NCBI RefSeq assembly: GCF_044647545.1
Contig: NZ_CP172818.1
Length of the DNA: 64,000 bases
Direction: 5' to 3' (one strand)
DNA from: Escherichia coli
GTDB lineage: Bacteria; Pseudomonadota; Gammaproteobacteria; Enterobacterales; Enterobacteriaceae
This document shows, piece after piece, positions 53,673 through 54,973 of the stretch (its first letter is position 1; each line of letters opens with the position of its first letter). The translations under genes were made by a program, and so were the position numbers. The notes below the pieces were generated by a model. The model made no database searches. It was not told the origin of the DNA and was given only the letters and a program-made list of their open reading frames with translations.

Positions 53673-54195
53673 TAAGAATTTCTTTACTGACAGGGTGAGC
53701 AGGGCGCTTTTATCCTGTCAGTTCGTTTTACTCACTTCATCCGGTGTATATACCCTTCTCGACAGTTCTTTAACGCCACTATACCCCTCACAGAGCGCTT
53801 ATACACCGACATTGACTTGTAACCTGTAAAGTACAATATCGCTGTGTGTAGGCGTTATACATCGTCGCAAATATGATGAAGGACAATGCTGTCGGTTTAT
53901 GGGAAAGTTGCTTTGGGTAAAACAAAAAAACGGCCCCAGAAGGGTAATGCCGATCAGTTAAGAGGAGCGGCACTATGTTTCACAGGATAACGGGTTTTTG
54001 ATATCTTTAACCGACCTCGGCCTTGATGGTCGGGGGCGTTTTGTTATGAACACCACTTCCAGAGCACCCCGAAGATGCTCCAGTCGTTTCGGGATAGTCC
54101 CTGGTAACACCCTTTACCCAGCTCTATCATTTCTGATGCGATATTCTTCCACGCAGGCAGTAGCCAGTGGCGGTTACAACCCTTCTGGTTCAGCG

Positions 54196-54849
54196 TCAGC
54201 AGCAGGTCTTCGCTGTAAAAAGTTTATCAAACAACGTAATAGAGTTATCCGGGATGGTGGCGAGCATGGAGTGGGCCAGCACAGTTTCGCTCTGCCGGTA
54301 AGGTGCGGTCACGGCATTCAGCAGAATGTGACTTCCCAGGTTCATTAAGGCCACCAGACGCATAACCGGGTAGGCGTTCTGCCGCTTAGTGGATGTGTTG
54401 GCAGACCCATAATATTCACGCAGCTCGGGTTTATCAGGTGTCCTGAACTGTGCGCCATCAATGGCAAAAAGTTGCAGGCCGTGCCAGTCATCCTTCAGGT
54501 AACGTTCCGCGCCCCTGTCTGTGCGGTCTGGCGGAAGAGCCATTCCACTGGGGCGGCCCCCACGCGCTGACGCGCCTGGGTGACAGCGCTGCGGGCCAGC
54601 AGGTTCATCCCCGCTTCGCCATCCGCGCTCAGGTTCAGACGGCGAACAACATCGGTAATTGGCTCATTGCACCACCATCCAGATAACCATGTCCCCCGGT
54701 AAACGACGGCGGCGAACGGTCGCATGAGCAGAAAGCGTCAGGCAGTGTTGTATCCACTCGGTGGGAAGGTGTTCTGCAAATAGTTGTGCAGAGGGCGGAG
54801 GCATAAGCGGATGGTCACTGAAATCGAGCAGATCATTGAGAAGTGGCAT
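54196..54849 (-). pseudogene. insZ: Fragmented transposase remnant (IS4-family-like)
   Basis: Three short overlapping minus-strand ORFs in different frames (54664..54849, 54495..54725, 54196..54543); the last contains a FAIDG(A) block typical of DDE transposases. No terminal inverted repeats identified. Family and gene symbol are from recollection of the pseudogene at this position in E. coli K-12. Confidence 0.5.
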
Positions 54850-54973
54850 AAGAAAACGGCTCCCTGTTGTGGAAGCCGTTATAGTGCCTCAGTTTAAGGA
54901 TCGGTCAACTAATCCTTAACTGACTGGCATTACCCCAGAAGGGACCGTTTATGTTGCCAGACAGCGCTACTGA

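Follow-up and report, generated by a model that had tools for sequence, protein, structure and literature searches.

A defective ISZ'/insZ-type insertion sequence in the adhE terminator of Escherichia coli, and a possible preference of related IS4-subgroup elements for intrinsic terminators

The window analysed here is a 64-kb (64,000-nucleotide) stretch of an Escherichia coli chromosome that extends from dadX to oppD. Within it, tdk and adhE are convergent and are separated by a spacer of 1.3 kb. This spacer holds a bounded, defective insertion sequence (IS) and not a featureless scar (Table 1). An inverted repeat of 21 nt that is 90% complementary (53942-53962 and 54915-54935) marks the two ends, and outside it lies a perfect 11-bp direct repeat. 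The terminal inverted repeats (IRs) of the element are 18-21 bp long and both of its ends read TAATGCC(A/G)(G/A)TCAGTTAAG. Where the site is empty, E. coli strains carry one copy of CCCCAGAAGGG and are exactly 999 bp shorter, which is 988 plus 11 bp. A clean empty site that is shorter by this length and has a single CCCCAGAAGGG is the signature of transposition with an 11-bp target site duplication (TSD).

A sequence-only reading of this locus had described an old insertion scar of a decayed transposase gene between tdk and adhE, at 54000-54900, with no obvious inverted repeats and next to the adhE regulatory region. The old scar of an IS4-family transposase gene is borne out by Pfam matches (see below), while the element is wider than was thought. 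The search for terminal repeats and target duplications that the same reading had proposed brings both to light, and the comparison with insertion-free strains, also its suggestion, reveals one TSD copy and no deletion scar. The position relative to adhE has to be corrected. Because adhE is on the minus strand, its promoter is past 57649, at 2.7 kb from the element, so the element is not near the adhE regulatory region. It lies on the 3' side of adhE, 41 bp past the stop codon and within the terminator hairpin of that gene. The terminator of tdk is left untouched by the insertion.

Table 1. Features of the tdk-adhE spacer and its flanking genes, in window coordinates
Feature	Position	Strand	Basis or remark
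tdk CDS	53055..53672	+	3' end toward element
tdk terminator hairpin, intact	53686..53723	+	Terminator scan; -20.5 kcal/mol, z -3.9
Distal half of split adhE terminator: 3' arm GGGGCCGT and T-run	53924..53944	-	Empty-site comparison, terminator scan
TSD copy 1, CCCCAGAAGGG	53934..53944	.	Direct repeat 100% identical, spacing 999; single copy in empty site (L004)
Defective IS4-subgroup insertion sequence (ISZ'/insZ type), 988 bp	53945..54932	-	IRs, TSD, empty-site comparison
Right terminal IR, reverse complement TAATGCCGATCAGTTAAG	53945..53962	-	Repeat search; alignments
C-terminal transposase pieces, aa 397-444	53960..54104	-	Frames -3 and -1; split by window-specific 1-bp insertion at 54006
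Junction of 423-bp internal deletion, aa ~247-388 gone	54129..54130	-	Alignments to intact relatives
Transposase piece, aa 217-249	54122..54220	-	Frame -1; after window-specific 1-bp deletion at 54221/54220
Transposase piece, aa ~119-217, first and second catalytic D regions (FAIDG, FDKLF)	54217..54513	-	Frame -2; after 1-bp deletion at 54516/54515
Transposase piece, aa 63-117, Nterm_IS4	54516..54680	-	Frame -3; entered via 17-bp deletion at 54671/54670
Transposase piece, aa 1-62, native ATG, Nterm_IS4	54664..54849	-	Frame -2
IS-internal hairpin (10-bp stem, 6-nt loop) and T-rich tail	54848..54880	-	Terminator scan; -22.3 kcal/mol, z -5.5
Left (transposase-proximal) terminal IR, TAATGCCAGTCAGTTAAG	54915..54932	-	Repeat search; alignment to intact relatives and IS4
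TSD copy 2, CCCCAGAAGGG	54933..54943	.	Direct repeat 100% identical to copy 1
adhE-proximal half of split terminator: 5' arm AAACGGTCCC and loop	54933..54950	-	Seen whole in empty site
adhE CDS	54974..57649	-	3' end toward element

The target of the insertion can be read from the empty site. Past the adhE stop codon, the minus strand of this site reads AAACGGTCCC-TTCT-GGGGCCGTTT and then TTTTGTTTT, and this intact adhE terminator is a textbook intrinsic terminator (-24.9 kcal/mol, z -3.8). The 11-bp duplication spans the terminator loop and the inner stem, and the adhE terminator is thus split by the insertion. The terminator scan of the window calls no terminator-like site at either junction of the element.

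The window element cannot encode an active transposase. Its minus-strand open reading frames (ORFs) are pieces of a DDE transposase, as the sequence-only reading had proposed, and three of them match Pfam families above the gathering cut-offs. The ORFs at 54664-54849 and 54495-54725 match Nterm_IS4 (E 3.7e-11 and 3.5e-12, respectively), and the ORF at 54196-54543, which holds the FAIDG block, matches DDE_Tnp_1 (E 1.5e-5). The one outcome that the earlier reading had named as speaking against it, a lack of any transposase Pfam match, is therefore not what is seen. With a near-intact relative as the tblastn query, the window is matched at E 8e-106. Frame-aware comparison with a related full-length transposase gives six collinear pieces (aa 1-62, 63-117, ~119-217, 217-249, 397-429, and 428-444), and no intact transposase gene is left at the locus, which agrees with the earlier account. 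That account had counted three ORFs in three frames. All three minus frames are indeed used, though by six pieces, and the three large ORFs lie in only two frames (-2, -3, -2) since the 17-bp and 1-bp deletions jointly restore the frame. The 423-bp deletion takes out the Y(2)R(3)E(6)K motif together with the catalytic glutamate. Single-base indels at 54221/54220, ~54113, and 54006 are specific to the window copy. In total, the window copy is 442 bp short of an intact relative, and the frameshifts come on top of this. The deletions were placed using BLAST and MAFFT alignments, leaving aside a global MAFFT alignment to the intact element whose high gap penalty put the large deletion in the wrong place.

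Membership of the IS4 family and the IS4 subgroup was judged by published criteria (PMC2266710). Homology of the transposase to the family is given by the two Nterm_IS4 matches and the DDE_Tnp_1 match, and a near-intact relative scores 248.6 bits against the NCBIfam model transpos_IS4_1 (cutoff 115). The end signature of the IS4 subgroup, -AATR--------WTW (Table 1 of PMC2266710), is present on both sides of the window element. The direct duplication is a perfect CCCCAGAAGGG of 11 bp, within the expected 10-13 bp, and occurs singly in the empty site. The element is 988 bp long because of its internal deletions and so falls short of the expected 1,400-1,650 bp, a range that includes the 1,430 bp of its intact relative. 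An unbroken ORF with the D(60-110)D(100-150)E triad and Y(2)R(3)E(6)K is absent from the window copy. With the E/YREK region (aa ~247-388) lost and the ORF in six pieces, this copy is a defective remnant and not a functional member of the IS4 family.

Within the subgroup, the element is assigned to insZ. Its tdk-adhE site is collinear with that of K-12, and the 17-bp, 1-bp, and 423-bp deletions are common to both copies, which therefore come from the same dead ancestor. In K-12-type strains, RefSeq labels this locus "IS4 family transposase, frameshifted", and the element is thus an already-known, annotated pseudogene. In papers it goes by ISZ', ISZ, or insZ only. A search for a more specific database name returned the generic transpos_IS4_1 in NCBIfam and "IS4 family transposase" in RefSeq. 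ISZ'/insZ has been described as IS4-like, inactive, and present in a single copy (PMC3032704; PMC5009759). An Rfam scan of 53600-55100 at a permissive E-value found no known RNA gene; a match to ctRNA_p42d at 54846-54882 covers the IS-internal hairpin only and reaches 33.4 bits, against a gathering threshold of 50. Taken together, we are highly confident that the window feature is a dead, non-autonomous copy of ISZ'/insZ from the IS4 subgroup that sits in the adhE terminator and is now a neutral passenger.

Intact relatives are present in 164 E. coli genomes. One intact chromosomal element has 1,430 bp and encodes a 445-aa transposase (WP_001130319.1). Strain AR_0019 has an intact example downstream of gndA, F-like plasmids carry others, and a near-intact relative is likewise plasmid-borne. 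The intact transposase has D134, D214, and E318, and its glutamate is within an exact Y(2)R(3)E(6)K motif (YHSRWEIEVGFRNLK) that occurs only in the intact relatives. The intact element has -AATR- ends, an 11-bp TSD in a hairpin, and a match to transpos_IS4_1 at 248 bits, and it fits the IS4-family definition of PMC2266710. Over the parts that the window copy has kept, the two are 88-92% identical in DNA; they also agree in their end sequences and in an 11-bp duplication with a hairpin loop at its centre. The intact element differs in that its 445-aa ORF is uninterrupted and keeps the DDE residues and YREK. IS4 proper (insG, 1,426 bp) was considered as the identity of the window element and rejected, as the transposase of the relatives is only 38% identical to InsG. 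Both belong to the same subgroup. Over ~34 bp, their transposase-proximal ends are 97% identical. In both, a comparable hairpin and T-run precede the start codon, the duplication is 10-13 bp long, and the targets are of one kind, but DNA similarity is confined to the ends, and IS4 is a different IS species.

The window copy is not a simple replica of the K-12 copy. The two share locus and orientation and have 1 difference in 785 bp of the interior (54130-54914). The window copy departs from K-12 in several respects. Each 18-bp terminal repeat has 3 substitutions relative to K-12 and to the intact type alike, the adhE-side duplication is longer by one base, there are the three additional single-base indels, and the flanks are of the empty-site haplotype (53650-53933 side). 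On the adhE side, the outermost 20 bp are those of the allele with an IS4 remnant, which occupies the same site in other strains (see below). A K-12-type interior framed in this manner suggests recombination among different alleles at the tdk-adhE site. The history of the window copy, with its changed terminal repeats and empty-site flanks, thus includes recombination, and this counts against our preferred reading of the locus. The exact window allele is absent from 5,426 complete E. coli genomes, in which the best full-length match is 97.4%.

The same 5,426 genomes were surveyed for the state of the tdk-adhE site. It is empty in ~2,200 genomes, holds the ISZ remnant in 1,883 (query coverage of at least 80%), and holds a second remnant of ~1,145 bp in 1,134. 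The ~200 genomes in none of these three states may have further variants or rearrangements at tdk-adhE, and they, too, count against our preferred reading. The second remnant occupies the very position of the ISZ remnant and has its orientation. It derives from IS4 proper by deletion: ~281 bp are missing, the identity to insG is 97.8%, and the 12-bp duplication CCCCAGAAGGGG lies on its two sides. Among its carriers is the type strain ATCC 11775. At other sites, ISZ-type copies make 11-bp duplications and IS4 insG makes 12-bp duplications. Because the two remnants differ in sequence and in duplication length, and each follows its own habit elsewhere, the comparison points to two independent insertions at one hot spot.

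Species-representative genomes were scanned using the shared left-end sequence. This yielded 120 loci, and a target profile was built from 114 distinct outer flanks and compared with 107 controls. The profile has A at -21 to -16 (up to 80%) and is G+C-rich at -15 to -9; nearer the junction, it is A/T-rich at -8 to -5 and has G at -4 to -1. The A-run is found at 82 of the 114 sites and in 19 of the 107 controls, and a partial hairpin against the junction at 78 sites and in only 5 controls. Nine copies had both ends recovered. Six of them have an exact 10-14 bp duplication, and each of these six reconstructed targets consists of an A-run, a stem-loop-stem hairpin, and then T's, and the loop is at the centre of the duplication; the flanks of the other three are without an exact match. 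Among 81 sites with a nearby long ORF, the 3' end of the gene faces the IS left end in 66 (binomial p 9e-9), and the median distance from stop codon to IS left end is 39 bp. The adhE site fits this profile with its ATAAA, ACGGTCCC, TTCT, and GGGG, and with its 41 bp from the stop codon.

An alternative to a double hit is a single ancestral insertion in which the ISZ and IS4 interiors were later swapped by recombination via shared ends. The remnants have common end sequences of ~34 bp on one side and ~18 bp on the opposite side, and the window copy is itself a mosaic with the outer bases of the IS4 allele on its adhE side, so exchange between alleles does occur. Stretches of 18-34 bp are, however, very short for homologous replacement, and the duplications are of 11 and 12 bp, each of the length that its own element makes elsewhere. 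The subgroup has a strong target consensus to which this site conforms, so that a double hit is also to be expected. Recombinational replacement through the short shared ends is hence less likely than two independent insertions, and we regard the single-insertion scenario as improbable.

The element also brings its own hairpin. Just inside the left end, the IS-internal hairpin has a tail that stops at the transposase ATG. In the terminator scan of the window, it is the first and only terminator-like site left downstream of adhE. A hairpin with a T-run is found at the same position, with other stem sequences, in IS4 and many relatives. Under strict criteria, a scan for this conserved hairpin was positive in 21 of 61 distinct ends and in 3 of 305 shuffles. 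The hairpin would normally stop read-through transcription into the transposase gene, and with its T-run it may now end adhE transcripts as a substitute terminator. If so, the insertion would be nearly neutral and harmless. Two points count against this part of the preferred reading: only 21 of the 61 distinct ends scored, and the tail of the hairpin in the window, TTCTTAT, is a weak T-run. A second terminator-like hairpin is located at 54015-54035 on the plus strand (CCTCGGCC...GGTCGGGG and GCGTTTTGTT), ~70 nt from the right end. It faces inward and is antisense to the transposase, and it may block transcription entering from that side.

On balance, we lean towards the view that IS4-subgroup elements with this end sequence are terminator-homing. 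They would recognise A-run/GC-hairpin/T-run terminators past gene ends and duplicate the loop, and their own left-end hairpin and T-run would both shield the transposase from read-through and replace the split terminator. The adhE terminator would then be a natural hot spot that was struck independently by two elements whose transposases are 38% identical.

Parts of this pattern have precedents. The subgroup has been described as having "spectacular insertion specificity in the target arms" (PMC2266710). An explicit statement that IS4 targets terminators was not found in the searchable literature. Older work reportedly gave an AAA-N20-TTT target consensus for IS4 and an IS4 insertion in the pheST attenuator, and the terminator pattern may accordingly be partly known. 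Class C group II introns insert after intrinsic terminators, and Tn7 inserts downstream of glmS. Unlike these and other structure-homing elements, the elements considered here use a DDE cut-and-paste transposase and make a 10-14-bp duplication across the loop. Targeting of REP sequences is known for members of the IS3, IS110, IS4 (ISRm22), IS256, and IS5 families (PMC1525189). IS1397/ISKpn1 and IS110-family elements that insert in REP/BIME palindromes are similar in that an extragenic palindromic target is "safe" for the host. They are dissimilar in that the target here is an A-run/GC-hairpin/T-run site resembling an intrinsic terminator and not a REP.

The following history very probably accounts for the locus. 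Cut-and-paste transposition brought an ancestral element of ~1,430 bp into the hairpin of the intrinsic terminator past adhE, with an 11-bp duplication that has the hairpin loop at its centre. Decay came next, through the 17-bp, 1-bp, and 423-bp deletions and with loss of the catalytic glutamate and the YREK motif, all of it common to K-12. The window copy has three more single-base indels. The remnant has probably been passed on since as a neutral passenger in about one third of E. coli. The terminator hairpin appears to be a preferred target of this IS subgroup, and on that basis IS4 proper would have struck the same position independently in another lineage.

A different fate for the remnant is co-option, either of the sequence as an adhE terminator or 3' UTR, or of the 61-aa N-terminal peptide as a regulator or inhibitor of transposition. 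The conserved interior could be taken this way, given the near-identity of the window and K-12 copies there against 8 differences per 100 bp in the flanks. The first ORF, with its native start and the DNA-binding Nterm_IS4 part, retains both its ATG and the upstream hairpin, and that hairpin is the sole terminator-like site remaining after adhE. Recent recombinational spread of one allele explains the low interior divergence equally well, however. The reading frame is broken six ways, and further frameshifts have been gained by the window copy. As ~2,200 genomes are without the insert and 1,134 have a different remnant, nothing essential depends on the ISZ remnant. Co-option is for these reasons quite unlikely.

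It could also be argued that the remnant is still mobilisable in a MITE-like manner, with an intact ISZ-type transposase or the InsG of IS4 acting in trans. Both IRs are kept, and the K-12-type copy and intact relatives have identical ends. The transposase-proximal end matches IS4 at 97% over ~34 bp, and intact relatives circulate in the 164 genomes mentioned above. Yet K-12 has an active IS4, and its mutation-accumulation lines gave 0 new ISZ insertions against 8 for IS4 (PMC5009759). Among the examples examined, the remnant is seen at this one locus only. Dispersed copies with different flanks, as expected of a MITE, were not found: this deletion type was found only at tdk-adhE, and other places hold intact or different relatives. 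In the window copy, each IR moreover carries 3 changes. We consider such mobility very unlikely, and a neutral passenger remains the preferred description. Lastly, a featureless, repeat-less transposase scar beside the adhE regulatory region that might affect adhE regulation can be set aside almost entirely, since the transposase fragments are real but IRs and a TSD are present and the element is at the 3' end of adhE, with the promoter side past 57649.

The finding itself is minor, being the re-discovery of an annotated pseudogene that is present in about one third of E. coli genomes. Its one mildly new aspect is the terminator-homing pattern, beside which the twofold insertion into the adhE terminator may deserve some attention. 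If terminator homing with a carried-in substitute terminator is true, it would explain how such elements persist without harm to the upstream gene, and the homing could be exploited for safe-site insertion. The three-state site (empty, ISZ remnant, or IS4 remnant) can be used as a lineage marker and is a natural example of recurrent IS targeting.

Some further observations concern the scanned loci and the remainder of the window. Two IS4-subgroup copies (L104 and L122) have flanks that are halves of two different hairpins without a matching duplication, which suggests that copies of this type were rearranged by recombination between copies. A 241-bp scaffold filed as Corynebacterium striatum ATCC 6940 (NZ_GG667584.1, locus L022) carries the E. 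coli adhE-terminator/ISZ junction; almost certainly, E. coli DNA has contaminated this assembly. The statement of the sequence-only reading that the element is the only mobile-element trace in the window is supported: the rest aligns to syntenic regions of other strains without an annotated transposase, and the sole unaligned stretch, 30236-30443, is not a transposon. This stretch of 208 bp is G-poor (15 G in 208) and lies within the ldr/LDR repeat region. It is missing from a strain whose sequence to the left and right of it is 100% identical to the window, and megablast finds no match for it among the 5,426 complete E. coli genomes. It was considered as a second mobile element and rejected, as it is without IRs and without a transposase and its gapped similarity to the LDR copies next to it is only ~73%; it has the look of a degenerate repeat or of an artefact of assembly. 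The window as a whole is a mosaic. Positions 20001-39000 are 99.9-100% identical to several sequenced strains (e.g., FDAARGOS_497), and positions 1-20000 and 39001-64000 are 97.8-98.2% identical to the best of the 5,426 genomes. In the tyrT/tyrV-rtT region (46948-47150), the window has two tRNA-Tyr genes 118 bp apart, and extra rtT repeat units in strain RM9513 (L006) make up most of its 714-bp length difference from the window.
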